A DNA stretch of 64,000 nucleotides from SAR324 cluster bacterium (GTDB lineage: Bacteria > SAR324 > NAC60-12), in NCBI GenBank assembly GCA_014382365.1, contig JACNJW010000044.1:7368-71367 (forward strand). Reading direction: 5' to 3'. Position numbers and translations under genes: made by a program. Shown here one piece after another: positions 47,619-62,261 of this stretch. The notes under the pieces were generated by a model. It was given only the letters and a program-made list of their open reading frames with translations, was not told where the DNA came from and ran no database searches. How positions within the stretch are numbered: the stretch's first letter is position 1; every line of letters begins with the position of its first letter.

Positions 47619-47721
47619 TTGTCAGGCAATCAGCTAAATATTTTAGTGAACCATCCGTTTCATTTGACAGAATATTCAGCCGTTACGACTTGGTAACTTA
47701 AACGATATTTCCTACGAGCAC

Positions 47722-47743
47722 CATGTTACAAATTTGTAACATG
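47722..47743. promoter_or_regulatory. Perfect 22-bp palindrome CATGTTACAAA|TTTGTAACATG in the 480-bp spacer upstream of the respiratory island
   Basis: Read directly; both arms are 11 bp with no mismatch. TGT-N12-ACA architecture, about 290 bp upstream of the candidate sigma-54 promoter. Confidence 0.45.
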
Positions 47744-48033
47744 AATGTCAGCTGATAGAACCTCCATTCTTATGAATCGCCCGCCTTCAGCAAAAAAATA
47801 AATATTTATTTCTGACTTTTCTTCATTTTCCATTAGCAGGAAATATTACCAGTTCAAATGCCACAAGATAAAACCTGTTTGCAGTATAATCATTTGTATT
47901 ATCATACTTTTAAGTATAATGATATAAAATTCTTTTTCGAAAATAAGCCATTATTAACATATCTGATTTTTTAAGAATACCGAACACATCCTCCAGCTTG
48001 AAACTTGGAACCATCGGTTCCGTGAATTAGTTA

Positions 48034-48049
48034 GGGAATACACGTTGCA
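48034..48049 (+). promoter_or_regulatory. Candidate sigma-54 (-24/-12) promoter for the cytochrome c-FeS-Mo operon
   Basis: GGGAAT-ACACG-TTGCA. GG (48035-36) and GC (48047-48) have the canonical 12-nt register, and the -12 TTGCA is perfect. The -24 half matches only GG+A. It lies 50 nt before the ATG at 48099, and a sigma-54 activator is encoded at 60383. Confidence 0.35.
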
Positions 48050-48098
48050 GAAGTGACAAACTTGATTTGTTTTTACTAAGCTTCAAGATCGGATAATC

Positions 48099-48746
48099 AT
48101 GCTTAAAATACGGATTCCACATTTTATTCTGTTGACTATTGTACTGTTCACTACAGTTGTTATAGGCAATATTCTTGCTCTGCCCCCTGTTGCTGAGGCG
48201 GCCGGATTTATGGGGCATAAAAAGAAAAAGGGCTGTACCAAGTGCCATAAACAACAATATAAATCTTGGAAAAAGATGCGCCACGCCAAGGCGATGAAAA
48301 CCTTGATGCCCGGAGAATTTGCCGAAGAAAAAATAAAGGCTAAACTTGATCCGGATAAGAATTACATCAAGGATAAAAAATGTTTGAAATGCCACACCAC
48401 CGGACTCGACAAAGGCGGGTATTCTGTTGGGAACAAAAAAAAGATGAGAAGTTTCTATGCCGTTGGTTGCGAGGAGTGTCATGGGAAAGGGAAGAAATAT
48501 CAGAAGGTGAAGAATAAATACGAACAAGATGACTTTCCTCGCGATGAGGTCATTAAGGCCGGGATGAAATACGGGGAAAAGGAGGTCTGCGAAAAATGCC
48601 ATAATGATGACAGTCCTTTCAATGCCGCACTTGATCCCAAATATGCGTTTGATTACAAAAAAATGCTCAAAAAAGGAACACATAAACATTTCCGGCTGAA
48701 AAAGCATTCTCCCCGTAAGGGAAGTGAATGGTTATATGAGGATTAA
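48099..48746 (+). CDS. Periplasmic tetrahaem cytochrome c, lysine-rich
   Basis: Signal peptide (ALPPVAEA-AG). Four CxxCH motifs (CTKCH, CLKCH, CEECH, CEKCH). 43 Lys in 215 aa by my count. Confidence 0.85.
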   Translation: MLKIRIPHFILLTIVLFTTVVIGNILALPPVAEAAGFMGHKKKKGCTKCHKQQYKSWKKMRHAKAMKTLMPGEFAEEKIKAKLDPDKNYIKDKKCLKCHTTGLDKGGYSVGNKKKMRSFYAVGCEECHGKGKKYQKVKNKYEQDDFPRDEVIKAGMKYGEKEVCEKCHNDDSPFNAALDPKYAFDYKKMLKKGTHKHFRLKKHSPRKGSEWLYED

Positions 48747-48852
48747 CTGATTTTACCCTCGGTTTTTTTAAATTTGGAATAATGTCCACTGAATTCCGGG
48801 GAGCACCGGTGGATATTTTTGTTTTGATTAACAAATAATAGGAGACGGAAAG

Positions 48853-49506
48853 ATGGCTAAGAAAATAAAGTATGCAATGGTGATTGACATCAACCGTTGC
48901 ATTGGTTGCAAGGCCTGCATGACTTCATGCAAGGCTGAAAACGAAGTGCCCCTGGGGGTTTTCCGGAATCACGTACGTGAACTGGAGAAGGGGATTTATC
49001 CCAATATGAAGAAAATTTTTCTTCCGGTTTTGTGCAATCAGTGCGATAAACCGGCCTGTAAAGCGGCACTTCCAGAAGGATATGAAGATGCTATTACCAA
49101 ACGTGATGACGGCATTGTTGTTTGGGATGAAGCCAAATGCAAAGGCAAAGTAGCCGAAGCGGCGATCGAGGGTTGTCCGTACAGTAATCCCTATATGCAC
49201 CCACAAAAGAATGTTTTCCAAAAATGCGATTACTGTGCGCATCGTGTGGATGCCGGATTGCAACCCGCCTGCGTGGCGACCTGCATCGGCGGGGCAAGGA
49301 TTTTTGGCGATGTCAATGATTCGACCAGCGATGTTTTCAAATATATGGCAACTCACTCGACTCATGTTCTAAAACCGGAGGAAGGTACTGAGCCAAACAC
49401 ATATTATGTGGCTTTGGATAGAATAACTGCCGAACGGCTGGAAGGTTCACAACAATTGCCTCCCACGGATGCTACTGAAATTGCAGTTGAAAACTTCAGC
49501 GGTTAA
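48853..49506 (+). CDS. Fe-S (beta) subunit of the molybdopterin oxidoreductase; apparently a 3-cluster variant, no signal peptide
   Basis: CIGCKACMTSC, CNQCDKPAC..LP, C-x11-CP and CDYC..C...C. AGGAG RBS. Confidence 0.8.
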   Translation: MAKKIKYAMVIDINRCIGCKACMTSCKAENEVPLGVFRNHVRELEKGIYPNMKKIFLPVLCNQCDKPACKAALPEGYEDAITKRDDGIVVWDEAKCKGKVAEAAIEGCPYSNPYMHPQKNVFQKCDYCAHRVDAGLQPACVATCIGGARIFGDVNDSTSDVFKYMATHSTHVLKPEEGTEPNTYYVALDRITAERLEGSQQLPPTDATEIAVENFSG

Positions 49507-49542
49507 AACCATCATTTTGCACTAAATATATAAGGAGATACC

Positions 49543-52164
49543 ATGCAACTTAAACGAAGAAAATTTATCCAATTGGGAAGTGCCGCAGGTGCGGCATTGA
49601 CCGTTGGTAGCCAATTTGGCATGAAGGCTAAGGCGTCGGCATTGATGGAGTTGAAGCAAACTGGCAGTGCTTCTCCAACGGGAAAGAAAAATCAGGAAAT
49701 TCCTTACACTTGCCTGACTTGTAATATTGAGGACGGCGGAATCGCCTATGTCGAAGACGGCAGAATCCGCAGACTGGAGGGCAATCCCAATCATCCGGGA
49801 AATCGCGGGAAACTCTGTGCAAAAGGTAACGCCGGACATTTGCACGTCTATGATCCAACCCGAATTTTGAATCCGTTGAAACGGGTCGGCCCCAGAGGTA
49901 GCGGCAAGTGGAAGCGCATTACTTGGGACGAAGCCTTGAGCGAAGTCGCCGGAAAAATTCAGGGTGCGATGGACATTGATCCGATGTCCGTCATGTTTCA
50001 GTACGGACGCAACCGGACTCACGGTCTCGTTTATCGCTTTATGAATGCGCTGGGTTCCGGAACAGTGAATAATCACACCTCAATTTGCGAGTGCAATAAA
50101 AAAGTGGCTATGGAACACGCTTGGGGGCCGGACATCGAAACGCCTGACTTTGCGCACACTAAGTACATCCTCAACTTTGGCAGTAACTTGGCGGAAGCCG
50201 CTTATTTCCATAATCCTTACATCCAAAGACTGATGGACGGAAAAATAGAGAACAAGGCCAAACTTGTTACTTTTGATCCGCGTATGACCAACACGGGTGC
50301 AATCAGCGATGAGTGGATTCCCTTGAAGCCTGCAACCGATGGAGTTGTCGCCTTGGCAATGTGCAATGTAATTTTGCAGGAAGGACTGGCGGATACAGAA
50401 TTTATCCGCAAGTACACTAATGTTACGGCGCATCAGTTGACCGAACATCTCAAGCAATACACTCCGGAATTTGCCGAAAAGGAAAGTGGGGTTTCTGCGG
50501 ACACCATTCGCCGAATTGCGATTGAATTTGCAACCGCCGGCCCGGCCACGACTTACACTTATCGCGGCAGTTCCATGCACCAAAACGGTGTTTATACGGA
50601 GAAAGCCACGATGATGCTCAATGTTGTCACCGGAAATATTGAGAAACGTGGCGGCTTCAATTTGCCGCGCGGCTTAGGTTTTGGCGGCGGACCGGGACCG
50701 CATCCGCCCAAACCGCCTCACAGCATTCTGAAGTATCCACCGGAATATCCGTTAGCCAGTCATCATGTTTCTCACCATGTTTCTCATTCCATTTTGGAAG
50801 GACGGCAGAAGATCAATGTCTTTATGCTTTATTGTCATAATCCGCTCTATACTCAACCGGACGGAGACACTTGGAAACAAATTTTAACGAGTGAAAAGCA
50901 CATTCCTTACTCTGTTTCTTTCAGCATCAATATGGATGATTCGACGAAGTATGCCGACATCATCTTGCCGGATACGACTTTCTTGGAGCGTTGGGATCCG
51001 GAATCAATGCCATCCTCAGCTCTAGGCTGGGTCGGTTTGCGACAACCGGTTATTAAGCCTCTCGGTAATGCCAAAGCTTTCCGGGATACGATTTATGAAC
51101 TGGCGCAAAAAATCGACCCCGACGGTAAACGCGGTGTCAAGAAGTATTTCAGTTACGGTTCGGCGGAAAGCTATGTTAAAAATCAGCTTGAAGCAACTCC
51201 GGGACTGAAAGCCGCAGGTGGATTTAAGCTCCTCAAAAAATATGGAGTTTGGCCTTTTTATGATAAGAAAAAGGAGGATAACTTCAAGTTCGGCGCACAC
51301 GAGGAAACACTCAGCGAGAGTGATTTGGCCGGAACAACTTTGGAGGGACGTACTTTGATGAAAGGCGGAAAGTCTGTCGGTTTAATGGTGGACGGAAAAG
51401 CTGTTCGAGGTTTCGGCACTCCTTCACGCACTTTCCAAGTCAATGTTCCTGAGTGGGAGCATTACGGTTTTGAACCGATGCCACATTATGAAGCGATTGA
51501 GGATCATAAGCGGATGAAGTCTGATGAACTGTTGTTGAGTACATACAAGCCCAATGTTCATACTCAATCCCGTACTCCAAATCTCAAGTGGTTACAGGAG
51601 CTTCACCATCGTAATCCTGCTTGGATCAACACCGAAACCGCAAAAGCTCGCGGAATCGGAAACGATGATTTGATCAGAATAACAAGTCCAATCGGCTACA
51701 TGGTCACAAAGGCTCGGGTTACAGAGGGCATTCACCCCCAAGTAGTGGCCATCGCCACTTCCAGCGGTATGTCAAACAAGTCTACTTTGGGCAATTACGG
51801 CGGCTCCAAAGACCCGGATATTGTGCAGAATACCTGGTGGGATGATACCGGTGTCCATCCAAACCAAATAATTCCTGTCAGTACTGACCCCATCGGTGGC
51901 GGTATGGGCTGGTTTGACACGGTGATCACCGTTACCAAAGCCAAATCCGGCGATAAATACGGAGACACGCGTTCCGATCGGGGAGCAGCACGGAAAGCCT
52001 TTGAGAAGGCACTTTCCAAAGCTACCAAAGTTCGAACTGAAGATGCGCATAACACTACAGCTAAAACCAATGTTCGTGACGAAATACATACGGAGGTTGG
52101 AGGTGTTTTTGGCACAACAGCAAAACTTCGTGATTTTGAAGACCCGTTCAATACCACTGCTTAG
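49543..52164 (+). CDS. Tat-exported Mo/W-bis(pyranopterin guanine dinucleotide) oxidoreductase catalytic subunit, Psr/Phs/Ttr/Arr-like branch, substrate unknown
   Basis: Twin-arginine signal KRRKFIQLGSAAGA. FS0 region C57-x2-C60-x3-D64-x27-C92. Probable Mo-ligand context NHTSIC. Molybdopterin-binding pattern throughout. AAGGAGA RBS. Confidence 0.85.
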   Translation: MQLKRRKFIQLGSAAGAALTVGSQFGMKAKASALMELKQTGSASPTGKKNQEIPYTCLTCNIEDGGIAYVEDGRIRRLEGNPNHPGNRGKLCAKGNAGHLHVYDPTRILNPLKRVGPRGSGKWKRITWDEALSEVAGKIQGAMDIDPMSVMFQYGRNRTHGLVYRFMNALGSGTVNNHTSICECNKKVAMEHAWGPDIETPDFAHTKYILNFGSNLAEAAYFHNPYIQRLMDGKIENKAKLVTFDPRMTNTGAISDEWIPLKPATDGVVALAMCNVILQEGLADTEFIRKYTNVTAHQLTEHLKQYTPEFAEKESGVSADTIRRIAIEFATAGPATTYTYRGSSMHQNGVYTEKATMMLNVVTGNIEKRGGFNLPRGLGFGGGPGPHPPKPPHSILKYPPEYPLASHHVSHHVSHSILEGRQKINVFMLYCHNPLYTQPDGDTWKQILTSEKHIPYSVSFSINMDDSTKYADIILPDTTFLERWDPESMPSSALGWVGLRQPVIKPLGNAKAFRDTIYELAQKIDPDGKRGVKKYFSYGSAESYVKNQLEATPGLKAAGGFKLLKKYGVWPFYDKKKEDNFKFGAHEETLSESDLAGTTLEGRTLMKGGKSVGLMVDGKAVRGFGTPSRTFQVNVPEWEHYGFEPMPHYEAIEDHKRMKSDELLLSTYKPNVHTQSRTPNLKWLQELHHRNPAWINTETAKARGIGNDDLIRITSPIGYMVTKARVTEGIHPQVVAIATSSGMSNKSTLGNYGGSKDPDIVQNTWWDDTGVHPNQIIPVSTDPIGGGMGWFDTVITVTKAKSGDKYGDTRSDRGAARKAFEKALSKATKVRTEDAHNTTAKTNVRDEIHTEVGGVFGTTAKLRDFEDPFNTTA

Positions 52165-52296
52165 GCCGGTGTTGTATATTTTTGATTGAGCCGTATGCTC
52201 CTGCTCTCTTGGGGAGAATGCGGTTTAATCTTGAAGTCAAACTTTTGGTGTGTGTTCAATTTATTGCTCCCTACATTTTCCAATCATCATTTTCCA

Positions 52297-52995
52297 ATGT
52301 CATCATCCAAACAAGTCAATGTAAGGCCAACTTCGACAGAAATGGCGGAAAGCGGGCCTTGCGAAGCAGAAAATCGTGCCAATGTTTATGAGTTTCTTTC
52401 ACGGATTTTTTTGGAAGAAATGGATTCCGGTTTACTGCAAGCTCTGCAATCGGACGAGGTGGCGGGAATATTTCTGGATTGGGGAATCAATTTTCAAGAA
52501 GATTTGGCCGGAGAAAACCAAAACGAAATTTTAGAACAATTAGCTCATGCCTATTGCGACACTTTTGTAACTGGCGAAGATCCGGTTTTTTCTCCGTATG
52601 AATCAGTCTGGAAAACAGGTTGTCTTGAGGGCAAGTCAACTTTACTTGTTGAAGAATTCTATACAAAATGTTCGCTGGGGCTTCCAAAAAACTGTCCGGA
52701 ATTTGCGGATCATTTGGGAATCGAATTTGATTTAATGAGCCGACTTGCAAAAAAAGAGGCTGAATTTCGGCTTGCCGCTCAAACTGCACAAGCAGAAAAT
52801 TATCACAAGTTTCAACAGGCTTTTCTCAAAAATCATCTTTTAGCTTGGGGTCCCGAATTTTCGGCAAAAATAGAACGCTGGGCTTCCCATCCTTTTTATC
52901 AACATATCGGTAAATTAAGCTGTGAATTCCTCAGAATGGAGGCGGAAGAATTTGAGTTGGAAAGCGAACCTTACATGGAATTTTCAGAAAACTGA
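52297..52995 (+). CDS. TorD/DmsD-family redox-enzyme maturation chaperone
   Basis: ANVYEFLSRIFLEE, SPYESVW and ADHLGIEFDLMSRL. Start uncertain (52186, 52297 or 52342). Confidence 0.7.
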   Translation: MSSSKQVNVRPTSTEMAESGPCEAENRANVYEFLSRIFLEEMDSGLLQALQSDEVAGIFLDWGINFQEDLAGENQNEILEQLAHAYCDTFVTGEDPVFSPYESVWKTGCLEGKSTLLVEEFYTKCSLGLPKNCPEFADHLGIEFDLMSRLAKKEAEFRLAAQTAQAENYHKFQQAFLKNHLLAWGPEFSAKIERWASHPFYQHIGKLSCEFLRMEAEEFELESEPYMEFSEN

Positions 52996-53024
52996 ATCCA
53001 AAAAATATTCCTCAAAAACAGCTT

Positions 53025-53489
53025 GTGAAGTATTTGAAATTTTATGCTATTTTATTTATTTTGCTTGGGGGAGGAGCGGGTGGTTATTTTCTATTGTCGG
53101 GAAATTTTATTCCTCAGGAGCGTCGATTATCTGCGGAAACCGTGATTGAAAAAATAACCGGAGAAGAGAAAAACGACTATTTGTTGATCGATGTGCGTGA
53201 GCCTTGGGAAAATCAGGCTATTCGCATTCCCGGAAGTAAACTTATTCCACTGAAAATAATTGAAAGTGAACCTTACGAAGAAATACAAAAACTTAACAAA
53301 AATCAAAAACTGATTCTTTATTGCACGGTTGGAGTCCGCTCGGATAAGGCATACGGCATTTTTACTAAATTGGGATTTGATCAAGTTTATGTGATGAACG
53401 GAGGGCTGGATGCGTGGATGGAAGAACAAGGGCCGTTGGAAACTCCAAGCATTCCGCAATGGATTGAAGGAAAAGGATGTGAAAGCTGA
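53025..53489 (+). CDS. Single-domain rhodanese (sulfurtransferase) with an N-terminal TM anchor
   Basis: LIDVREPWE, active-site loop YCTVGVRS and MNGGLDAW. GTG start. N-terminal segment is FYAILFILLGGGAGGYFLL. Confidence 0.8.
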   Translation: MKYLKFYAILFILLGGGAGGYFLLSGNFIPQERRLSAETVIEKITGEEKNDYLLIDVREPWENQAIRIPGSKLIPLKIIESEPYEEIQKLNKNQKLILYCTVGVRSDKAYGIFTKLGFDQVYVMNGGLDAWMEEQGPLETPSIPQWIEGKGCES

Positions 53490-54669
53490 CTTGGAAAAGA
53501 CGATTCTCAAACTAACTGAAAATGCTACACTTTTGGGAGAACTAGAAATTATCGGTGAGAGATGTCTGAATCAATCCGTGCAAAATTTAGGCTGTTCCAA
53601 ATGTACAGATGTGTGTCCGGAAAACGCTATTCAACTGAACAGAAAACCGGAAATTGACCGCTTGAAATGCAGTTCTTGCGGATTGTGTGTTGGGTCATGC
53701 GAAACTTCAGTCTTTGTTTTTTCAAAATTATTCAACAATGTTTTCTTCAAAGCACTCTCCGGAACAAACACCGAAGAAACGGAAATACAGAGCGAATCTC
53801 ACAACGCAGTCTTGATGTGCGGGGGAATTCCGCAAGATTCATCGCCTTCGTTGTTAGCAAATGTACCGATTTGTTTAGCGGTTTTGGATGAGGTGCATTT
53901 CATTAAATTGGCAGAAAAATTTGGCCACCTTACTTTGGATTGTAGTGGTTGCAGTGATTGTCGTTTTGAAAAGGGATTGAACTTAATCCGGAAGCGCGTC
54001 TCAGAATCCGGAGCTTGGTTGGGAAGTCTTGGTATCTCAGGACGGGTGAGCATCACAACCGATTCCGGTTTCCTTGTAGAGGGGGAAAATAAAATTATCC
54101 CTTTGATACGAGAGGCCTCCCGCTCACGGCGAGACCTTTTTCGACGCGCTCGTAATCGTGGTGTGTTGGAAGTTGCAAACAGATTTGCTGATGCGGAAGC
54201 AAATCCGGAAGTCAGGGAAACTCCTACTCCGGAAAGAAGGAGGGCACTAAAATCATTATATTTGGCGCACGGAGAAAATTTATTGTCTCCGGTATTACCG
54301 GAAAACTTACCGCTTCACATTGTTTCAACAAAAGAGACCTGTCAACTTTGCAGTGAATGTACGGTGCGTTGTCCGGGAAAAGCCTTGCTCAAAATGGAAA
54401 ACAGAGTTGAGGCGAAACTGTTTTTTGAACCGTTAAATTGTTTGGGATGCACTGATTGCGAACAGTTTTGTCCACATGATTCGCTTGAAATTCGTGCTTT
54501 GACGAAAAATGATTTTCCCTTAAAGGAAAGAGTGCTTTTCAGTCGCGGAAAAACCAAATGTGATTCTTGCGAAAAGCCTTTCATTTCTCAAAGTACGGTT
54601 TCGACTTGTTCTGCTTGCTTGCGGTATAAGTCAGTTGATGATTCAATGTTAGACATTTTGGGATGGTAG
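53479..54669 (+). CDS. Cytoplasmic polyferredoxin (multiple 4Fe-4S motifs) with a C-terminal C-x2-C...C-x2-C knuckle
   Basis: CSKCTDVCP, CSSCGLCVGSC, CSGCSDC, CQLCSECTVRCP, CLGCTDCEQFCP and CDSC-x14-CSAC. No signal peptide. Start uncertain (GTG 53479 or TTG 53491); the ORF-track start 53410 lies inside the rhodanese gene. Confidence 0.7.
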   Translation: MKADLEKTILKLTENATLLGELEIIGERCLNQSVQNLGCSKCTDVCPENAIQLNRKPEIDRLKCSSCGLCVGSCETSVFVFSKLFNNVFFKALSGTNTEETEIQSESHNAVLMCGGIPQDSSPSLLANVPICLAVLDEVHFIKLAEKFGHLTLDCSGCSDCRFEKGLNLIRKRVSESGAWLGSLGISGRVSITTDSGFLVEGENKIIPLIREASRSRRDLFRRARNRGVLEVANRFADAEANPEVRETPTPERRRALKSLYLAHGENLLSPVLPENLPLHIVSTKETCQLCSECTVRCPGKALLKMENRVEAKLFFEPLNCLGCTDCEQFCPHDSLEIRALTKNDFPLKERVLFSRGKTKCDSCEKPFISQSTVSTCSACLRYKSVDDSMLDILGW

Positions 54670-54701
54670 TGAACAATTAAACTGCAAAACATCCTATTTT
54701 T

Positions 54702-54767
54702 AGCCACAGATTTTCCCGGATAAATACGGATAAAAACATCCGTAAAAAGCTGCGTAAATCTGTGGCT
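54702..54767. repeat. Nested inverted repeat between the polyferredoxin and the second cytochrome gene
   Basis: The outer 12-bp arms AGCCACAGATTT (54702-13) and AAATCTGTGGCT (54756-67) are perfect. Inner hairpin is TACGGAT-aaaaac-ATCCGTA (54725-44). GGATAAA is directly repeated 10 nt apart. Confidence 0.6.
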
Positions 54768-54784
54768 GATAGCAAAACTAAAAT

Positions 54785-55615
54785 ATGAGCACCAATAAAA
54801 TAACTTTTTACAGCGTAAGGTACGCTGTTGCTTTTTGCGCAATTTTCTTTTTTGCCTTTTCTTTCTCAAATTCTAGCCTGTCAATAGGACAGGAGGTTGA
54901 GGAAGTTGTCGAAAATAAAACTGAAACCGATGCTGAAGAAGAAAGTGAAGAGGAAGACGAAGAAAGCGATGATGAGGAAGAGGAGGACGATGAAGCAATG
55001 CCTTGGGATGATGAAGATGATGAAGAAATCAAAGTTTTTAAGTTTCCACAATCAACAGAATTTCTACCAAATTTTCCTATTTTTAAAGTCAAGTATGCAG
55101 GCTTTCCGGAATTCAAAATCAAGGGCCGGTTGCGAAGTTCGGAGTACTTTCTTTGCAGTGAGTGCCACGACGGCGTTGAGCTAAAACCGAGACCGATCAT
55201 TCGGGAATTGCGTAAAGAACACACCAACATTAACTTGGATCACATCAAACAAGAACACGGCACAGAAAAGTTTTGGTGTACCACCTGCCACGACACGAGC
55301 CGTCCCGATTATTTGGTCGGCCTGAAAAAACAGTCGATTCATTTTGATCAATCCTTTTTACTCTGTGGTCAGTGCCATTCGCAAAATCAAAAGGATTGGT
55401 TGTTCGGCGCACACGGCAAACGCACCGGAAACTGGAACGGTGAACGCACGATTTTGCTTTGTACAGAATGCCATAGCCCTCATTCTCCAGCCCTTGAACC
55501 TGCTTCGCCCAACCCGCCACCGCCGCCACGTCAGGGGCAAATTTTGGTCAAATCTGTTCATCCGGAAGGGCCTCGAAAAACTTGGGATAAATTTATTTAT
55601 TCAAAACAACATTGA
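54785..55615 (+). CDS. Tetrahaem cytochrome c (c3/paired-CxxCH type) with an N-terminal anchor and a ~45-aa polyacidic tract
   Basis: CSECH, CTTCH, CGQCH and CTECH. Acidic tract EVEEVVENKTETDAEEESEEEDEESDDEEEEDDEAMPWDDEDDEE (nt 54893-55027). Pro-rich tail. Confidence 0.8.
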   Translation: MSTNKITFYSVRYAVAFCAIFFFAFSFSNSSLSIGQEVEEVVENKTETDAEEESEEEDEESDDEEEEDDEAMPWDDEDDEEIKVFKFPQSTEFLPNFPIFKVKYAGFPEFKIKGRLRSSEYFLCSECHDGVELKPRPIIRELRKEHTNINLDHIKQEHGTEKFWCTTCHDTSRPDYLVGLKKQSIHFDQSFLLCGQCHSQNQKDWLFGAHGKRTGNWNGERTILLCTECHSPHSPALEPASPNPPPPPRQGQILVKSVHPEGPRKTWDKFIYSKQH

Positions 55616-55619
55616 TCTT

Positions 55620-56582
55620 ATGAGCGAAAAAAATAATCCCGCCAAAACTGTTGAGACTCCGGAAAACTCCGACGTTTCCCGGAGAGAGCTTTTTAAGAAA
55701 ACCGCCATCGCCGGAACCATTGCCGCCGCCGGAGCGGTCTCGACAACGATTGCCGCAAGTAATGTTGAGTCGGGAGGTCTTTCTGACGCCTTGGATGAGT
55801 TTTTTCAAAAACATTATCAAGAGATGAGCAAAGAGGAAATGCAAAAAGCAATCGCCCGTCTCGAACGCAAAGCCAAAGAAAAACACGGTAAGGAAATTCA
55901 CATCGGCAACACTCCACCTCTTGAAGGTGTGTTATTCGGTTATGCGTTGAATATTTCCAAATGTAAAGGCTATCGGAAATGTGTTGATGCCTGTGTTGCC
56001 GAAAATAACCAAAATCGCGACACAACGATTCAATACATTCGCGTTTTGGAACTGGAAAATGAGTCGATGAATTTTGAGGAAGCCGATCATTATTACGACC
56101 GCGAAACAGTTCCTCATACCGGAAAAAAGTATTTTCCGATTCAGTGCCAACAATGCGAAAATCCGCCTTGTGTAACCGCTTGTCCGGTCGAAGCGACTTG
56201 GAAAGAAGCGGACGGTATCACCGTAATTGATTACAACTGGTGCATCGGATGTCGCTATTGTGCAGCCGCTTGTCCGTATTGGGCGAGGAAATTTAATTGG
56301 AGTGAGCCGAGTATTCCTGAAGAAAAAATCAATCCTGAAACTCATTATCTGAGCAACCGTCCACGAATGCGCGGCGTAATGGAAAAATGCACCTTCTGCC
56401 TCCAAAGAACACGCAAAGGTAAATTGCCAGCTTGCTTGGAAGCGTGTCCGACAGGCGCCAGAGTTTTTGGAAACATTTTAGATCCAAAAAGTGAAATACG
56501 CTATGTTTTGGAAAATAAAAAGGTTTTCCGCTTAAAAGAGGAACTTAATACAGAACCGAAATTTTGGTATTACAGCGACTAA
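55620..56582 (+). CDS. Tat-exported 4-cluster-type Fe-S protein (NrfC/HybA/DsrO/PsrB-like) of the membrane module
   Basis: SRRELFKKTAIAG twin-arginine signal. CKGYRKCVDAC (Tyr in place of the 2nd Cys), CQQCENPPCVTACP, CIGCRYCAAACP and CTFC...C...CP. Start re-picked at MSEKNN (55620). Confidence 0.8.
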   Translation: MSEKNNPAKTVETPENSDVSRRELFKKTAIAGTIAAAGAVSTTIAASNVESGGLSDALDEFFQKHYQEMSKEEMQKAIARLERKAKEKHGKEIHIGNTPPLEGVLFGYALNISKCKGYRKCVDACVAENNQNRDTTIQYIRVLELENESMNFEEADHYYDRETVPHTGKKYFPIQCQQCENPPCVTACPVEATWKEADGITVIDYNWCIGCRYCAAACPYWARKFNWSEPSIPEEKINPETHYLSNRPRMRGVMEKCTFCLQRTRKGKLPACLEACPTGARVFGNILDPKSEIRYVLENKKVFRLKEELNTEPKFWYYSD

Positions 56583-56611
56583 CTTGAACATCAGAATCAC
56601 AGGCATAAATC

Positions 56612-57811
56612 ATGGAATTCATTCGCTTTTGCTTTGACGGAGTCAAGGAAATTTTTAGGGGAGGAAAACTTTATTGGAGTTGGATGGGTGTTTTGGCGGT
56701 TGTGGCCTTGTTTGGTGCTTCTGCTTATTTGCAACAATTACAACAGGGTTTGGTTGTGACGGGAATGAGCGATCAAGTTTCTTGGGGCATTTATATTGCC
56801 AGTTTCACCTCTTTGGTCGGAATTGCTGCCGCTGCAATTATGTTGATTATTCCGGCCTATATTTTTCACGATATGGATATCAAAGAAATTGTTATTCCTG
56901 CCGAAGGCTTGGCGATTGCGGCTTGCGTTATGAGCATGATGTTTGTGCTGATAGATTTAGGTCGTCCGGATCGAATGTGGCACCTGCTTCCTTATATCGG
57001 TCGTTTTAACTTTCCAAAATCAATGCTGGCTTGGGACGTGTTAGTGCTGAATGTTTATTTATTTCTGACCATGATAATTTCCGTCTATCTCCTTTTTTCC
57101 AAATACAAAGGAAAAGAGCCTAAATTTTCAATTTATTTTCCGTTGGTTATTCTTTCAATTTTCTCAGCACTTTCCATTCACACCGTAACGGCCTTTTTGT
57201 TTTCTTCCAATGTTGCTCGCTCGTTTTGGCACACAGGACTTTTGGCTCCGCGTTTTATTGCATCGGCATTTTCCGCAGGCCCGGCCTTTTTCTTGTTAAC
57301 TGCGCTTGTGATGCGCTACACAAAAGTTTTTCCGGTTAAAGAAATTGCGATAAAACGCTTGACCACGATTATCACAATTGCATTAGAAATCAATCTCTTT
57401 TTATTGTTAGCGGAGGTCTTCACAGAGTTTTATCATCAAACCGAACATAGTGCTTCTGCGGCTTACCTCTTTTTCGGATTGGGCGGTAAAACTGCTTTGG
57501 TTCCCTGGATTTGGTCGTCAGTGTTTTTGAATATCAGTGCTTTAGTTATCTTCGTTTTGCCTCTGAAAAAGAATACGATTTTCCTGGCACTGGCTTGTCT
57601 CTTTCTGGTGGTGGGAGTTTGGATTGAGAAGGGCATGGGATTAGTCGTACCGGGATTCATACCGACACCGTTGGGCGAAGTTTATGAATATACTCCAACT
57701 TTTATCGAGGTTCAAATTTCTATGGGAGTTTGGGCTATCGGTCTGATGCTCTACACAATTTTAGCCAAAATCTCAATTGCCGTCAATTTGGAGCGGATAC
57801 GTTTAACTTGA
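56612..57811 (+). CDS. NrfD/PsrC-family integral membrane quinone-interacting subunit
   Basis: 399 aa, about 10 TM segments. N-terminal MSDQVSWGIYIASFTSLVGIAAA is typical of NrfD. Confidence 0.7.
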   Translation: MEFIRFCFDGVKEIFRGGKLYWSWMGVLAVVALFGASAYLQQLQQGLVVTGMSDQVSWGIYIASFTSLVGIAAAAIMLIIPAYIFHDMDIKEIVIPAEGLAIAACVMSMMFVLIDLGRPDRMWHLLPYIGRFNFPKSMLAWDVLVLNVYLFLTMIISVYLLFSKYKGKEPKFSIYFPLVILSIFSALSIHTVTAFLFSSNVARSFWHTGLLAPRFIASAFSAGPAFFLLTALVMRYTKVFPVKEIAIKRLTTIITIALEINLFLLLAEVFTEFYHQTEHSASAAYLFFGLGGKTALVPWIWSSVFLNISALVIFVLPLKKNTIFLALACLFLVVGVWIEKGMGLVVPGFIPTPLGEVYEYTPTFIEVQISMGVWAIGLMLYTILAKISIAVNLERIRLT

Positions 57812-57959: not shown

Positions 57960-57988
57960 TGGACAAAACAAGTCCGATGGAGTAAAAT
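57960..57988 (+). promoter_or_regulatory. Candidate sigma-70 promoter for the sensor operon
   Basis: TGGACA (57960-65), 17-nt spacer, TAAAAT (57983-88), about 60 nt before the ATG at 58051. Confidence 0.3.
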
Positions 57989-58050: not shown

Positions 58051-58929
58051 ATGGCCAAAGTCTTTGTTAAAAATAAGAAATGTTGCCGTTTCAGTATTTT
58101 GGTTTTTTTACTGTTTCTGAATCTTGTTTTTTCCGGACAACTTATAGGGGCGGAATCAGCAGTACGCTTCGGATTGACTCCTGTCATTTTAGATAATCAG
58201 AGAGATTTTCTGGAAAATTGGCAAAAATTTCTGGAGAAACATTTAGAGCGTCCCGTCATTTTTATTCAACGGCGTACCTACGGTGAAATTACGGAAATGT
58301 TACTTCAAGAACAATTGGATATTGCTTGGATTTGCGGGCGTCCTTATGTGCAACATCAACAAAAATTGCAACTGCTGGCTGTACCGCTTTATCGAGGAAA
58401 GCCGCTCTACCAATCATATTTGATTGCCTTAAGCGACAACACTAAGATAGATTCAATCTTAGACTTGAAAGGGAAGGTGTTCGCCTATTCTGATCCGGAC
58501 TCCAACTCTGGTCATTTGGTCCCCAATGTCATGTTGAGTAGAGTAGGCAAAGATCCAAAAACATTTTTTGCTAAAACTTTTTTCACTTGGTCGCATAGGG
58601 ATGTTGTTTCAGCGGTTGCTTCTGGATTGGCGCAAGGCGGTGCGGTGGACGGCTATGTTTGGGAAACACTCAATCTTGTACATCCTGAATTGACCCAACG
58701 TACCCGGATATTGAACCGTTCTCAAAAATTCGGTTTTCCGCCGTTGGTTGCTCGCCCTTCTCTACCGAAAAATGAATTGTTACTTATACAGTCCGCATTG
58801 CTTCAAATGAACAAAGACCCAAACGGAATTCAACTTTTGCAAAAATTAAATCTGGACGGGTTTGTTGAGGGTGATGACGCTTTATTTGACGGCATCCGCG
58901 AATCTTTGCTTTTTTTAACGGGCTACTGA
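58051..58929 (+). CDS. PhnD-fold periplasmic binding protein, probable ligand sensor partner of the kinase (AioX/ArxX-like role)
   Basis: Signal peptide. VRFGLTPV...DIAWICG...YSDPDSNSGHL...GGAVDGYVWE is the phosphonate-bd fold pattern. No ABC permease or ATPase is adjacent; a histidine kinase starts 4 nt after its stop. Confidence 0.7.
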   Translation: MAKVFVKNKKCCRFSILVFLLFLNLVFSGQLIGAESAVRFGLTPVILDNQRDFLENWQKFLEKHLERPVIFIQRRTYGEITEMLLQEQLDIAWICGRPYVQHQQKLQLLAVPLYRGKPLYQSYLIALSDNTKIDSILDLKGKVFAYSDPDSNSGHLVPNVMLSRVGKDPKTFFAKTFFTWSHRDVVSAVASGLAQGGAVDGYVWETLNLVHPELTQRTRILNRSQKFGFPPLVARPSLPKNELLLIQSALLQMNKDPNGIQLLQKLNLDGFVEGDDALFDGIRESLLFLTGY

Positions 58930-58933
58930 AACG

Positions 58934-60370
58934 ATGTTCCGGAATGTTTCCTACCACTACAAAATCCCACTGAGTTTCAGTGTTGTCATAATATTGACTG
59001 GAATGATTGTTACCACAGCGTTGGTTTGGCAGACGTATGAAAATTTACGCCGCGATATCTTCCGGAACGCTGTTGAAGTGGGAGCCGCTTTGTCTGGAAC
59101 CTTGCAATTATCCATAAAACATGATGATGTCTGGAGAGCTTATCGTTTGCTAGCGGACACCGGACAGGCAGCCGATAGAGACGGCGGATTACTCTTGGTA
59201 GTACTCGACGAAGAATACAAAGTTTTTGCCTCCAACCAGCCTCGACAATTTCCCGTATTGGCTTCTTTGGAAAATCTCAGTCCGGAGTTTGCCGGTTTGA
59301 ATAAATCGCTACTGCAAAACAATAATAATGAAGCCCGTCCGATTGTACAAGGTGCAACTTTGTGGATGTACGTAGTGCACCCAATCCACGAATACGGGAC
59401 AAGGTTGGGAGTGTTATTGATAGGCTACGCCCATTCGCAATTTTTACCAAGATATTATGAAATTGTTTGGAATGTCAGCATCTCGTCTTTGGGGGTGATG
59501 TTAATTTTGTTGCCTTTAGGATGGTATTTGGGCAAAAATATGGCAGAACCTTTGGTAGAACTTTCAAATTGTATGGAGATGGTCGGTCAAATTCCGCCGG
59601 ATGAAATTGAATACAATTTGAAAGAAGCCGACGATGAAATCGGTTTGTTGAGTACACGTTTTAGGGAAATGCTGGAAGATTTGCGAGTCAAACAGCAATT
59701 CGAGCGGCAAGTATTGGTTTCCGAACGTTTAGCGGCAATCGGTCGAATGTCGGCGGGAGTTGCTCACGAAATTAATAATCCTCTGGGTGGAATGCTCAAT
59801 GCTATCAATACTTTCAAGCAACACAGACATGAAGAGGGTGTGCCGGAAAAAACCCTTTACTTACTGGAGCGTGGATTAGGGCAAATTCAAGAAACAGTTT
59901 CGGCTTTACTGGTGGAGAGTATCCCGGAAAGCCATCCTTTGAGTTTTCAAGATGTTGAGGATATCCGGACCTTACTTCATGCAGACATTAATAAAAAGAA
60001 CATCAACTTAGTTTGGGAAAATAATTTGGTAATACCGGCCTTACTACCTTCGACTCAAATTAGGCAAATTTTAATGAATCTTTGTCTAAATGCGCTTCAA
60101 GCCGCACCGGAAGAGAGTACTGTTTTTTGCAAAGTTTGTGCTGTAGAAGAAGAAAATTTATTGATTGAGGTGCGTAATGAGGGTGGAGATCTGGACGATG
60201 AAACCATGGAATTGCTGTTTGAACCTTTTGCCCACCAAAATTCCGGCGGTATCGGTTTAGGGTTATGGGTTACTTATCAAATCGTCCGTCAACTCGGAGG
60301 AGAAATTGTTGTTAAAAATCAAGATGGAACCGTCTCATTCTCGGTAGGCATTCCTCTGAGAAACTCCTAA
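58934..60370 (+). CDS. Sensor histidine kinase (2 TM, periplasmic domain, HAMP, HisKA, HATPase_c)
   Basis: H-box SAGVAHEINNPL. N, G1 and G2 boxes (LMNLCLNALQA, NEGGDLD, GGIGLGLW). Confidence 0.85.
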   Translation: MFRNVSYHYKIPLSFSVVIILTGMIVTTALVWQTYENLRRDIFRNAVEVGAALSGTLQLSIKHDDVWRAYRLLADTGQAADRDGGLLLVVLDEEYKVFASNQPRQFPVLASLENLSPEFAGLNKSLLQNNNNEARPIVQGATLWMYVVHPIHEYGTRLGVLLIGYAHSQFLPRYYEIVWNVSISSLGVMLILLPLGWYLGKNMAEPLVELSNCMEMVGQIPPDEIEYNLKEADDEIGLLSTRFREMLEDLRVKQQFERQVLVSERLAAIGRMSAGVAHEINNPLGGMLNAINTFKQHRHEEGVPEKTLYLLERGLGQIQETVSALLVESIPESHPLSFQDVEDIRTLLHADINKKNINLVWENNLVIPALLPSTQIRQILMNLCLNALQAAPEESTVFCKVCAVEEENLLIEVRNEGGDLDDETMELLFEPFAHQNSGGIGLGLWVTYQIVRQLGGEIVVKNQDGTVSFSVGIPLRNS

Positions 60371-60382
60371 AACGTAATTATT

Positions 60383-61714
60383 ATGGTGCATATTTGTTTG
60401 GTTGAAGACGACCCCATCATGGGGGAATCGCTGGCGCATCGTTTCGCACTTGAACGCTTAACCTGTCATTGGTTTCAAGATGCGCGTAGTGCTTTGGAGG
60501 CAGTTAAAACAGAACATTATTCCGTGTTGATCAGTGATATTCGTCTTCCGGATATGGATGGGGAAAGCCTGTTCAAATCACTCATTGAACTCGGTGAACC
60601 ACCACCGCCGACATTGTTCATTACCGGTTATGGTGCTATTGATCAAGCGATACGCCTACTAAAACTGGGAGCACAGGACTACATTACCAAACCCTTTGAT
60701 CTGGATTTACTTTTGAGTAAATTGCGGAGCTTGAGTCCGGGGTTGTTTCCAAAAAAAGATGAACAGCCGCTGGAATTAATTTTGGGTATTTCCGAGCAAT
60801 TGCAAAAAATCCAACGGATGTTGAGCAATTTAGGAAAGCATGATGTCGGTGTTTTGTTCACCGGTGAATCCGGAGTCGGCAAAGAATATGCGGCCCGTTA
60901 TCTACATGACTGCTCCGGAGACAAAGGCAACCGACCTTTCATCGCCACCAATTGCGCCGCCATTCCGGAAAGTCTGTTGGAAACCGAACTGTTCGGACAC
61001 GAAAAAGGGGCATTTACTGGCGCCATACACATGCGGCGGGGTGTTTTCGAACAAGCCAATAACGGGACTCTTTTTTTAGATGAAATCGGCGATATGCCCT
61101 TGTCCATGCAAGTTAAACTGTTGCGGGCCATCCAAGAGCGTTCAATCTGTAGAGTCGGCGGAGAAAAAATGATCCCCATCAATTTGCGTCTCATCAGTGC
61201 GACAAATCATGACCCAATAGCTTTGGTGGAAAACGGAAAATTTCGGGAAGATTTGTTCTATCGCATCAATATCATTCATATCCACATCCCACCACTGCGG
61301 GAACGTCAAGAGGACATTCTTTGGTTTTCAAAAAAGTTTATGGAACTCTGCACACGTGAACAAGGTGAACGGCGGGTATTGACTCGGAGCGGAGAACAGT
61401 ATTTGTTCGATCAACCTTGGAAAGGCAACCTTCGGGAACTGAAGCATTGCATCCAACGTGCTTGTATCCTTTCCGGACAAGAAACAATAGGAGCCTCGGA
61501 ATTAGATGTGTATGGCGTTGAGCTTACCTCCACTAAAGAACAGGCGGTTGCAGATTTAAAAAGCTATTTGGAAGTTTGCGAACAACGACGCATCCTGCAA
61601 ATGTTGGAGAAATATAAATGGCGCATCGGGGACACTGCCGCCACTCTGGGAATCAGTCGTAAAAATTTATGGGAAAAAATGAAAAAATATGATATTTCTA
61701 ACCACGGTCACTGA
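60383..61714 (+). CDS. Sigma-54-dependent response regulator (NtrC/AioR class: REC-AAA+-Fis HTH)
   Basis: REC domain (LISDIRLPDMDG), GESGVGKE, GAFTGA sigma-54 contact loop, C-terminal HTH (TAATLGISRKNLWEKMKKY). Confidence 0.9.
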   Translation: MVHICLVEDDPIMGESLAHRFALERLTCHWFQDARSALEAVKTEHYSVLISDIRLPDMDGESLFKSLIELGEPPPPTLFITGYGAIDQAIRLLKLGAQDYITKPFDLDLLLSKLRSLSPGLFPKKDEQPLELILGISEQLQKIQRMLSNLGKHDVGVLFTGESGVGKEYAARYLHDCSGDKGNRPFIATNCAAIPESLLETELFGHEKGAFTGAIHMRRGVFEQANNGTLFLDEIGDMPLSMQVKLLRAIQERSICRVGGEKMIPINLRLISATNHDPIALVENGKFREDLFYRINIIHIHIPPLRERQEDILWFSKKFMELCTREQGERRVLTRSGEQYLFDQPWKGNLRELKHCIQRACILSGQETIGASELDVYGVELTSTKEQAVADLKSYLEVCEQRRILQMLEKYKWRIGDTAATLGISRKNLWEKMKKYDISNHGH

Positions 61715-61871
61715 AATTTTTCTAATTGATTATCTCATATACATTAAGTTTTTCATTTTGAATCCATAATTACGAATTCAAATTATAATTTACCTTGAAA
61801 AATAGCAGATTTAAGGCAGAATAATACTGTAATTCTGACCTTTGATTTTACTCATCCAAAAAGGAGTCTTT

Positions 61872-62261
61872 GTGAAAAAATTTACCGTTGATCATCAAAA
61901 TTATCATATTTTCAAAACTAAAAGCGGTGCCAAAACCCAGTCTGTGCATTTTCAGTGGGGAAAGTTTGATTTCCGCATGACTTTTGCCGGTAGCGGAAAA
62001 GCTACACAGAGAAATGCGGCCTTGGGTTTTAGCGCTGCTGACGGCAGTCAATTCTCAGTAACCAAATTTGAGGTTCTCTACCAGAATGAGTGGTTTGAGT
62101 TTGTCAAACCTACTGCTCACGGTATGCAACTGGAAGAAACCCTCTGGCGCAGAAACGAACGGGATTATTACGTTGAGTTTCCAAAGGATCTGAAAAGTGC
62201 GGCGCAGGAAATTTGTGCTGAAGAACTCGGCCTGGTCCAGCAGGAAAAAGTTGCTGCCTAG
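61872..62261 (+). CDS. Small hypothetical protein (129 aa)
   Basis: GTG start with AAAGGAG 5 nt upstream. No motif recognised. Confidence 0.45.
   Translation: MKKFTVDHQNYHIFKTKSGAKTQSVHFQWGKFDFRMTFAGSGKATQRNAALGFSAADGSQFSVTKFEVLYQNEWFEFVKPTAHGMQLEETLWRRNERDYYVEFPKDLKSAAQEICAEELGLVQQEKVAA

Follow-up and report, generated by a model that had tools for sequence, protein, structure and literature searches.

A predicted arsenite-sensing cassette of the AioXSR/ArxXSR family beside a molybdoenzyme operon in a deep-ocean SAR324 bacterium

Three adjacent genes of a marine, deep-ocean SAR324 bacterium encode a three-component system (X-S-R) of the AioXSR/ArxXSR family that most likely senses arsenite and activates the nine-gene operon beside it (48099-57811), a reading to which we give a probability of about 0.72. 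Coordinates refer to the window, the 64-kb stretch of DNA that was analysed. In the proposed mechanism, periplasmic arsenite would bind X through the Cys95 thiolate and a Tyr/Ser/His/Asp pocket, closing the V45-I46-L47 loop, and arsenite-bound X would dock onto the periplasmic domain of S. S would then autophosphorylate at His278 and pass the phosphate to Asp52 of R, and phosphorylated R would bind boxes at 47682 and 47725, its AAA+ domain (GAFTGA) opening a sigma-54 promoter ahead of the operon. The operon would then supply a TAT-exported Mo-bisPGD enzyme together with its FeS partner, a pair of tetrahaem cytochromes, a TorD chaperone, a rhodanese, a polyferredoxin and a quinone module of the DsrO/DsrP type. 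The more interesting puzzle is not the ligand of the sensor but the enzyme of the operon, which is neither Aio nor Arx and falls in a clade of its own (the new clade in what follows).

The X-S-R cassette and its predicted ligand

All three ORFs of the cassette lie on the + strand.

58051-58929, + strand: X, periplasmic binding protein of the AioX/ArxX subfamily, predicted arsenite sensor (from PDB matches, pocket and loop)
58934-60370, + strand: S, membrane sensor histidine kinase (two TM segments, periplasmic domain 35-175, H278, HATPase_c)
60383-61714, + strand: R, NtrC/AtoC-type sigma-54 enhancer-binding response regulator (REC, AAA+, HTH_8)

The original prediction, made from the sequence alone, had placed the cassette at 58051-61714, with a length of 292 amino acids for X and intergenic gaps of 4 nt (X-S) and 12 nt (S-R), all of which agree with the ORF coordinates; S and R are 478 and 443 amino acids long. 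It had also described S as a HAMP kinase. The kinase part stands: S spans the membrane twice (TM segments at about 9-35 and 175-200) and has a Pfam HATPase_c domain and a HisKA region with H278 in the sequence HEINNP (24.5 bits against a cut-off of 26.9). The HAMP domain, however, gives no Pfam match in S of the window, even at a relaxed E <= 10. Residues about 200-250, with a Pro after TM2 and a DEIG motif, align without gaps to the Pfam-positive HAMP domains of orthologous kinases (4e-10 at locus L087, 4e-7 at L001), and by homology we infer a HAMP-like segment at 200-250. R was correctly predicted to be an NtrC-class regulator with a GAFTGA loop, which lies at residues 209-214 of a sigma-54 AAA+ domain (Sigma54_activat, 1.7e-64; Walker A at 161) flanked by a REC domain (D52) and an HTH_8 domain. 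The recognition helix is conserved family-wide and R of the window fits the HTH consensus; R can be assigned to the AioR/ArxR type of sigma-54 activator.

X matches PF12974 (E 1.7e-56) and begins with the predicted signal peptide, which is Sec-type (KNKK, a hydrophobic core at residues 9-35, then GAES). The PF12974 match, together with 110.5 bits against TIGR01098, just below the cut-off of 112, might suggest a transport-type PhnD/PtxB binder with a two-component system beside it by chance. This is barely credible: as originally noted, neither a permease nor an ATPase gene adjoins X, and X falls outside the transport PhnD proteins, scoring 105 bits against a PhnD equivalog cut-off of 261. Phmmer searches of the PDB place X more than 50 orders of magnitude nearer to AioX (1.7e-67) than to PtxB (3e-13) or PhnD (4e-06), with ArrX at 3.5e-42, and the identity of X reaches 45.7% with crystallised AioX, as against 35% with ArrX and 24% with a transport paralogue in the window. 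That paralogue (27000-27893), previously predicted to be transporter-linked, has ABC genes encoded alongside it like a PhnD/PtxB transport binder (an ABC ATPase starts at 27904, followed by a 495-aa ORF), has the phosphonate binder 7S6G as its best PDB match (2e-64) and carries Gly where X has the liganding Cys. Among 81 clustered loci, moreover, S comes after X in 71 and R in 66. By sequence, X is an AioX-subfamily protein and not a transporter.

Seven pocket residues that contact arsenite, the liganding Cys106 among them, have been defined in AioX (PMC5908839). AioX Cys106, Y88, Y131, S161, S163, H192 and D210 correspond to C95, Y77, Y120, S151, S153, H182 and D200 of X, whose pocket also contains N152 and Y202; the seven residues, with N162 and Y212 in AioX numbering, are invariant in an alignment of X with all 80+ homologues. 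The signalling loop of X, V45-I46-L47, is the ArxX variant of the full-length hydrophobic loop V56-F/I57-L58. The original prediction had named a periplasmic oxyanion as the signal that switches the island on and had proposed comparing binding pockets; in that comparison X matches AioX and ArxX, and the ArrX loop and the transport paralogue differ. Because the pocket and loop of X point there, the oxyanion can be narrowed to arsenite as the probable ligand.

Pocket identity is not proof of specificity, since ArrX has the same seven residues yet binds arsenate (PMC5908839). X-S-R might instead sense another oxyanion (arsenate, thioarsenate, antimonite, thiosulfate, polysulfide or phosphite) matched to a reductase of sulfur or other oxyanions in the operon. 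The catalytic subunit does score best on the PhsA model (368 bits) with PsrA top in the PDB, and the operon includes a rhodanese. Even so, we regard this alternative as unlikely: X agrees with AioX/ArxX, not ArrX, both in N162 and Y212 and in having the full-length V-I-L loop, and R is of the AioR/ArxR sigma-54 type, in contrast to ArrR, which is CitB-like and has no AAA+ domain (PMC5908839). X also nests in the tree among AioA- and ArxA-linked X proteins, where proteins tied to different enzymes intermix, an ArxA-linked X being 85.6% identical to a new-clade-linked one; that X controls a true ArxA locus. Genes of the ars type are frequent at new-clade loci, although none was found within the 64-kb window.

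The operon, its boxes and the predicted target of R

The operon and the regulatory sites are as follows.

47682-47697, no strand assigned: distal R-box, candidate enhancer/UAS, GTTACGACTTGGTAAC (exact GTTAC-N6-GTAAC)
47722-47743, no strand assigned: proximal R-box within a perfect 22-bp palindrome, CATGTTACAAATTTGTAACATG (exact GTTAC-N6-GTAAC)
48034-48049, + strand: weak candidate sigma-54 (-24/-12) promoter, GGGAATACACGTTGCA (GG-N10-GC)
48099-48746, + strand: operon gene 1, c554-like tetrahaem cytochrome c (four CxxCH, signal peptide)
48853-49506, + strand: four-cluster FeS subunit, PsrB/ArxB-like (Fer4_11, 2.6e-27)
49543-52164, + strand: Mo-bisPGD catalytic subunit, TAT-exported (Pfam Molybdopterin, Molydop_binding, Fe4S4)
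52186-52995, + strand: TorD/ArxD-like chaperone (Nitrate_red_del, 2.7e-26)
53025-53489, + strand: rhodanese with an N-terminal TM segment or signal (PF00581, 2.1e-17; TM 6-26)
53410-54669, + strand: soluble polyferredoxin with multiple 4Fe-4S clusters (domain content)
54785-55615, + strand: second tetrahaem cytochrome c (four CxxCH, signal peptide)
55620-56582, + strand: DsrO-like periplasmic FeS protein (DsrO model, 186 bits)
56612-57811, + strand: DsrP/NrfD-type integral membrane quinone-interacting subunit (DsrP, 389.7 bits; cut-off 350)
57960-57988, + strand: sigma-70-like promoter 5' of X, TGGACA-17-TAAAAT (10/12 matches, a consensus match only)

Several of these products have counterparts in relatives. 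The first cytochrome is matched by Cytochrome_C554 in related loci, the FeS subunit is 46-50% identical to its counterparts in new-clade operons, the rhodanese is present too in the L087 and L032 operons, and the polyferredoxin has homologues in proteobacterial new-clade operons (cluster c4). The true start of the chaperone is probably at about 52320, its relatives being 220-224 aa long. The reading frame of the DsrO-like protein extends back to 55344 and has a TAT motif at its residues 108-142, and relatives of the protein are 320 aa long; the DsrP/NrfD-type subunit has about nine TM segments.

Conserved R-type boxes lie upstream of the operon, so the regulon of R, whose mapping elsewhere would have counted against the original prediction, probably maps to this operon. 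The exact sequence GTTAC-N6-GTAAC occurs only twice in the 64-kb window (0.073 expected), both times just upstream of the operon, with starts at 47682 and 47725, 43 bp apart; in relatives, the spacing of box pairs clusters at 42-44 bp. Related loci hold 85 copies in 1.36 Mb against 0.57 expected, an enrichment of about 150-fold, and control sequence holds none in 211 kb. Both boxes of the window sit downstream of the miaA stop and upstream of the operon and could therefore serve that operon only. The probable target of X-S-R is thus the upstream operon at 48099-57811, which the cassette appears to switch on.

The promoter is less clear-cut. In relatives, sigma-54 promoters lie 70-140 bp from the boxes and are oriented toward the Mo operon. 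A consensus scan of the window allowing <=2 mismatches returned no site upstream of the operon. From the proximal box to the first ATG, GG-N10-GC occurs once only, in the candidate at 48034, which departs from TGGCACN5TTGCW at three positions and is 309 bp away from the box. This site is retained in a 96% relative (L003); at the window position that aligns to the good sigma-54 promoter of L086, GG and GC are both lost.

The neighbour of X-S-R is a new-clade enzyme at about 49 of 85 loci, ArxA at 13 and AioA at 10, making the new clade the most frequent neighbour of the sensor family among the genomes sampled; these frequencies are biased, because loci were chosen by similarity to X of the window. 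X-S-R stays beside the operon across four gene arrangements. Elsewhere, orthologous cassettes lie next to AioA (1279 bits), to ArxA with the GRGWG motif and to ars genes, in keeping with the AioXSR/ArxXSR-type logic originally proposed. The operon is also transcribed in seawater, where RNA-seq contigs span 48297-52191, a stretch that takes in the first cytochrome gene and the catalytic genes.

An arsenite-sensing X-S-R might nonetheless lie only incidentally beside the operon, with its regulon elsewhere (in ars or detoxification genes, for example) and with the operon encoding an ordinary thiosulfate or polysulfide reductase. The weak sigma-54 promoter would fit this, as would the Gallionella locus L001, where X-S-R follows an ars cluster and no Mo enzyme is seen in the 20 kb shown. 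Expression gives a third point in its favour: in the seawater RNA-seq runs judged true, operon transcripts are high with no X-S-R contigs. (Runs X1 and X4 were excluded as expression evidence because their coverage is even over genes and intergenic DNA and they may contain DNA.) We consider incidental adjacency very unlikely, given that the only two R-boxes of the window lie past the miaA stop just upstream of the operon, that the linkage is kept at about 49 loci in four arrangements and that the boxes in relatives are paired with promoters facing the Mo operon.

The catalytic subunit and its clade

On sequence grounds, the catalytic subunit belongs to a separate, large clade without assigned function and is not ArxA, ArrA, AioA or a qualifying PhsA. 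Clade members are ~875 aa long, share the signature GRNR / HT..CE..KK and form their own clade in the tree; they occur widely among sulfur-oxidising Beta- and Gammaproteobacteria and among Nitrospinae. The best curated model for the window protein is PhsA and its best PDB match is PsrA, but thiosulfate or polysulfide reductase of the PhsA/PsrA kind was rejected (PhsA 367.9 bits, cut-off 694), and PsrA lacks the active-site Arg and His that the new-clade subunit has. Scores on the other models are 189 bits for ArrA (cut-off 1600) and 25.9 for AioA (cut-off 359), the latter setting the Aio system aside, since a true AioA elsewhere reaches 1279 bits. Neither GRGWG nor (R/K)GRY was found in the subunit. 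The positions aligned with R165, H189, C193 and K198 of ArrA are retained in it as Arg, His, Cys and Lys; the roles of those ArrA residues were reportedly assigned by Glasser and colleagues in 2018.

ArxA identity was likewise rejected: the subunit lacks XGRGWG, the ArxA motif (PMC6549141), is 26-27% identical to ArxA and lies in a separate clade, and its ArrA match is weak and N-terminal only, against 2e-111 for true ArxA. Three further candidates fell away. The strain M52 candidate, a 'low-salt group 3 ARX with insertion', comes from a paper that states XGRGWG to be present in all ArxA groups; the experimentally studied ArxA of Azoarcus CIB is classical, with the order arxB2ABCD; and the 'alternative arsenite oxidation' candidate of Thioalkalivibrio is cytoplasmic, Soe-like, without a TAT signal and unrelated.

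Our best guess at the reaction is periplasmic arsenite oxidation feeding a quinone/cytochrome chain. This molybdoenzyme is not among the known arsenic enzymes, and arsenite could therefore be a regulatory cue rather than a substrate. Tentatively, and at somewhat less than even odds, the clade may be a third kind of arsenite-responsive respiratory enzyme under an Aio/Arx sensor, either a new arsenite oxidase of the anaerobic kind or an enzyme converting arsenite plus sulfane sulfur to thioarsenate and back; the latter would account for a rhodanese being conserved and for the fold being PhsA-like.

Arsenic-cycle gene surveys currently rest on two classes of arsenite oxidase, Aio and Arx, together with Arr as the main arsenate respiratory reductase. 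In our sample, the enzyme most often coupled to an Aio/Arx-type arsenite sensor belongs to a different molybdoenzyme clade, whose members are labelled in databases only as 'molybdopterin-dependent oxidoreductase' or phsA. If this clade acts on arsenic, a large fraction of arsenotrophs escapes surveys of aioA, arxA and arrA, including open-ocean SAR324 and common sulfur/iron oxidisers of groundwater such as Thiobacillus, Sulfuricella, Gallionella and Sulfuritalea; SAR324, among the most abundant dark-ocean lineages, would then be an arsenotroph. The sensor, the DNA box and the clade signature offer three concrete handles.

Comparison with known systems

The enzyme resembles PsrABC, PhsABC and ArrAB in its Cys-ligated Mo-bisPGD subunit with an N-terminal FeS motif and TAT signal, its four-cluster FeS partner and its NrfD-type membrane partner, but differs in having GRNR rather than (R/K)GRY, in scoring below curated cut-offs and in forming a separate clade. 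ArrXSR, the arsenate sensor of Chrysiogenes arsenatis, has an X of the same periplasmic-binding-protein subfamily with the seven shared pocket residues. The ArrX loop is shorter and polar, however, F and L replace N162 and Y212, and the 35% identity to X extends from residue 59 onward only; with a CitB-like ArrR and a (R/K)GRY ArrA also unmatched, ArrXSR/Arr was rejected as the identity of the system.

AioXSR (Rhizobium sp. NT-26, Agrobacterium tumefaciens), which serves the aerobic AioBA, is closer: X is 45.7% identical with all arsenite contacts kept, S and R are built alike (in S with the HAMP-like segment deduced from orthologues) and sigma-54-dependent control is predicted for the window too. 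The window nevertheless encodes neither AioA nor the Rieske AioB, and AioA-linked cassettes are separate loci.

The anaerobic arsenite oxidase system ArxXSR (Alkalilimnicola ehrlichii, Ectothiorhodospira, Azoarcus sp. CIB) differs in its host (Proteobacteria, not SAR324), in its gene order (arxB2ABCD, unlike the window, where X-S-R lies downstream on the same strand and is not divergent) and in its catalytic subunit, as set out above; the electron-transfer module of the window consists of cytochromes and a DsrO/DsrP-like pair. It has in common with the window the pocket and V-I-L loop, a membrane histidine kinase with a sigma-54 EBP, a Cys-ligated Mo enzyme as target, exported by TAT and partnered by FeS, membrane and TorD proteins, and the GTTAC-N6-GTAAC boxes, which in the true arx loci L061, L062 and L084 have a -24/-12 promoter nearby.

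Architecture of the sensor cassette and the pocket of its binding protein

The genes for a periplasmic PhnD-fold binder (X), a histidine kinase (S) and a sigma-54 regulator (R) follow one another with gaps of 4 nt (X–S) and 12 nt (S–R); the three ORFs, their coordinates and both spacings were exact in the original prediction.

58051-58929, + strand: X, 292 aa; PF12974 (1.7e-56); Sec-type signal peptide
58934-60370, + strand: S, 478 aa; HisKA and HATPase_c; hydrophobic segments at ~9-35 and 175-200; H278 in HEINNP
60383-61714, + strand: R, 443 aa; REC (D52), Sigma54_activat (1.7e-64), AAA lid and HTH_8
27000-27893: second PhnD-type binder (paralog), adjoining an ABC ATPase; best PDB match the phosphonate binder 7S6G (2e-64)

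X had been described as an exported protein with no cognate transporter, and its Sec-type signal is indeed accompanied by no adjoining ABC permease or ATPase gene. R is NtrC-class, with Walker A at 161 and the expected GAFTGA loop at 209-214. S is a histidine kinase as proposed, but the HAMP domain attributed to it gives no Pfam match even at E <= 10; orthologous kinases in which Pfam does detect HAMP align there with residues ~200-250 without a gap, from which a HAMP can be inferred. With that exception the original observation is confirmed and its interpretation supported. Between R and miaB lies a 139-aa ORF (61842-62261) with no Pfam or NCBIfam match; the relatives L003-L005 (96%) keep it at a length of 130 aa.

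In a search of all PDB sequences, X matches AioX of Rhizobium NT-26, an arsenite sensor with a crystal structure, at 1.7e-67; the arsenate sensor ArrX comes next at 3.5e-42, and PtxB and PhnD score no better than 3e-13 to 4e-06. A test set beforehand, of whether X groups with transport PhnD proteins, thus came out negative. X is 45.7% identical to AioX, 35.1% to ArrX and 24.1% to the paralog at 27000, which is transporter-linked as predicted, matches AioX in the PDB at only 3e-3 and carries Gly in place of the pocket Cys of X. The binder and its ABC ATPase (27904) are followed by a 495-aa ORF (28597-30084) with no Pfam match at 1e-3, whose position suggests a permease.

The AioX pocket comprises Y88, C106, Y131, S161, S163, H192 and D210; the bond to arsenite is made by the sulfur of C106, and a hydrophobic loop (V56, F57, L58; Ile in ArxX) shuts upon binding (Badilla et al., PMC5908839). 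A MAFFT alignment of 80+ homologues shows no variation at these seven residues or at N162 and Y212. The ligand-contact comparison proposed at the outset found every AioX contact in X (Y77, C95, Y120, S151, S153, H182 and D200, plus N152 and Y202), with V-I-L as the loop. Pocket identity by itself is no proof of specificity, because ArrX has the same seven residues yet binds arsenate (PMC5908839). In ArrX, however, the loop is missing and positions 162 and 212 are F and L, unlike in X; these two further AioX/ArxX-type positions, together with the loop, would therefore argue for arsenite, which is the likely ligand of X judging from its sequence. That X-S-R belongs to the AioXSR/ArxXSR family, as first proposed, has in our estimate a probability of about 90%, given the match of X to AioX and the presence of like cassettes beside AioA and ArxA.

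The molybdenum enzyme operon and its candidate control sites

Upstream of X-S-R lies a nine-gene operon (48099-57811, + strand) whose first gene encodes a tetrahaem cytochrome (48099) and follows a 480-bp intergenic region 3' of miaA. A minus-strand 226-aa ORF (48027-48707) that fully overlaps the cytochrome gene (48099-48746, +) has no family match and is almost certainly spurious.

49543-52164, + strand: catalytic subunit, 873 aa; TAT signal, Fe4S4 motif, Mo-bisPGD domains
47682 and 47725: R-boxes (GTTAC-N6-GTAAC, candidate site for R) between miaA and the operon; the only exact copies in 64 kb, 43 bp apart
48034: candidate sigma-54 promoter, GGGAATACACGTTGCA; the only remaining GG-N10-GC, with three mismatches, 309 bp from the boxes
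57960-57988: sigma-70-like element upstream of X, candidate promoter

The catalytic subunit falls under every curated cut-off (score/cut-off: PhsA 368/694, ArrA 189/1600, TtrA 111/1750, AioA 26/359), and it has neither XGRGWG nor (R/K)GRY, the motifs that tell ArxA from ArrA (PMC6549141). For comparison, a true ArxA (locus L061) gives 2e-111 against ArrA and 432 bits with the ArrA model; the corresponding values for the window enzyme are 9e-50, with only the N-terminal third aligned, and 189 bits. Its relatives, a new clade of Mo-bisPGD enzymes, number in the thousands under generic names only, in hosts that include Sulfuricystis, Hydrogenophilus, Inmirania, Ferrigenium, Gallionella, Sulfuricella and Nitrospinae. 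Among cultured bacteria, Sulfuricystis multivorans and S. thermophila, Aromatoleum buckelii, Sedimenticola hydrogenitrophicus and Hydrogenophilus thermoluteolus carry the new clade, Sulfuricystis having arxA as well. A neighbour-joining tree of the 190 N-terminal columns separates the clade from both ArxA+ArrA and PsrA, and 120 relatives share the invariant signature K-x-GRNR-x-GG and NHT-x-x-CE-SS-KK. This signature aligns with the RGRY and HSSVC...K segments of ArrA, keeping Arg, His, Cys and Lys, whereas PsrA lacks the Arg and the His. Glasser and colleagues, in 2018, are said to have given those ArrA residues a substrate-contact role. That the enzyme acts on arsenite is a possibility we hold only tentatively. 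The FeS subunit, NrfD, TorD, polyferredoxin and rhodanese genes are common to the window and proteobacterial new-clade operons; two tetrahaem cytochromes and a DsrO/DsrP-like module are further components of the SAR324-type operon.

Base composition predicts 0.073 R-boxes in the window, and the proximal one (47725) sits within a perfect 22-bp palindrome. The loci of X relatives (1.36 Mb) hold 85 boxes against 0.57 expected, with a box in 57/84 loci and paired boxes clustering at a spacing of 42-44 bp; unrelated loci used as controls (211 kb) contain none. The usual place is 150-250 bp upstream of X, in a region shared with a divergent Mo operon, and the true arx loci L061, L062 and L084 have the same placement. 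Those loci also have, 70-140 bp from the box, a -24/-12 element (typically TGGCCCGG-N3-TTGCR) facing the Mo operon. The layout recurs in L086 (two one-mismatch boxes, then TGGCATCCATTTTGCT) and L087 (a box, then TGGTACGGGGGTTGCA), whose Mo enzymes are 71% identical to the window's, and the recognition helix of R (tA..LGIsRK.LWEKm) is conserved, window R included.

The window's own sigma-54 promoter is the weak link in this case. The segment aligned to the L086 promoter (L086 8363-8378; window 47836-47852) reads CTTTTCTTCATTTTCCA, with GG and GC both gone, which may mean that the promoter has turned over or that AT-rich DNA happened to align here. A sigma-70 start near 47890 would be an alternative to the candidate at 48034. 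The alternative that the regulon of R maps elsewhere is opposed by the window's only two exact boxes lying just upstream of the operon, and the operon is probably the regulon of X-S-R. Constitutive expression of aioXSR in NT-26 (PMC7533571) would fit with the sigma-70-like element ahead of X.

Two small RNA-seq runs from seawater yielded contigs over 48297-52191 (the cytochrome, FeS and Mo genes) at a coverage depth of 20-30, and almost nothing else of the locus. In these contigs coverage ends at 52191, just past the Mo stop codon, and falls almost to zero across TorD and later operon genes, a pattern that may reflect processing, attenuation or unequal stability of the mRNA.

Partner enzymes and probable exchange of the cassette

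Our sample comprised 80 genome loci with X relatives and several metagenome contigs. Once loci were clustered, S followed X in 71/81 and R in 66/81. Because loci were chosen by likeness to window X, the proportions of partner enzymes are biased: among 85 loci classed by neighbouring Mo enzyme, ~49 had a new-clade enzyme (~875 aa; 45-55% identical to the window's), 13 ArxA (GRGWG motif, or at least 45% identity to a motif-bearing ArxA) and 10 AioA (AioA model, 1279 bits), with no Mo enzyme detected in 13, mostly because contigs were short. The new clade thus appears to be the sensor family's commonest partner in a sample picked by similarity to window X. Acr3 and/or ArsA are also present in 11 loci; in Gallionella (L001), ArsR-ArsC-ArsD-ArsA-Acr3 run directly into X-S-R, and in L014 a new-clade operon, ars genes and X-S-R are contiguous.

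Several loci depart from the common arrangement. In Sulfuritalea MAGs (L052 18349-20761; also L041 and L048) three further R-boxes precede a second, Psr/Phs-like Mo enzyme (PhsA 235 bits, ArrA 156 bits; 27-30% identical to ArxA and to the new clade), and a single X-S-R may control two unassigned Mo enzymes in these MAGs. In Sedimenticola hydrogenitrophicus (L009 15031-17556) a Mo enzyme of 841 aa, sharing 39% identity with that of the window, is sister to the new clade and lies beside a second X homologue and three tandem R-boxes (19465, 19505, 19547). In a Chromatiaceae MAG (L032 13760-14160) the R-boxes, together with a good sigma-54 promoter (TGGAACAGAATTTGCT), are found 3' of R, facing further downstream genes, with the new-clade operon upstream on the same strand and rhodanese immediately before X. 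The new-clade-linked kinase of a Nitrospinae MAG (L088 6157-7992) has 611 aa and at best weak matches to sCache_3_2 and PAS_4, its X forms a long branch next to ArrX (neighbour-joining tree), and the locus looks like a more divergent sensor version.

X proteins do not group by partner enzyme, and an ArxA-linked X (L021) is 85.6% identical to a new-clade-linked one (L023); one and the same type of sensor cassette thus works with Aio, Arx and new-clade enzymes. Window GyrA shares 88-92% identity with SAR324 MAGs, and the operon and X-S-R sit between miaA and miaB in an otherwise housekeeping window, with no mobility genes near them. The closest Mo enzymes are those of L086 and L087, but the window's X (54-58%), S (~47%) and R (~55%) are nearer to marine sulfur-oxidising Gammaproteobacteria (Sedimenticolaceae, Thiodiazotropha and Chromatiaceae) than to L086/L087 (~45%, ~30% and ~45%). 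Exchange of the cassette probably took place separately from that of the enzyme operon.

In the papers covered, on arx diversity, Azoarcus ArxA, a Thioalkalivibrio transcriptome, DMSO-reductase-family phylogeny and SAR324, the new clade is neither assigned nor tied to aioXSR; a SAR324 'phsA' listed in PMC10367259 may be the window's catalytic gene. The sensor belongs to a known family and occurs here in a phylum new for that family, the novelty being its probable wiring to an unassigned clade of Mo enzymes. Independent exchange of the cassette would fit with Badilla's conclusion that regulators and enzymes have separate histories (PMC5908839).
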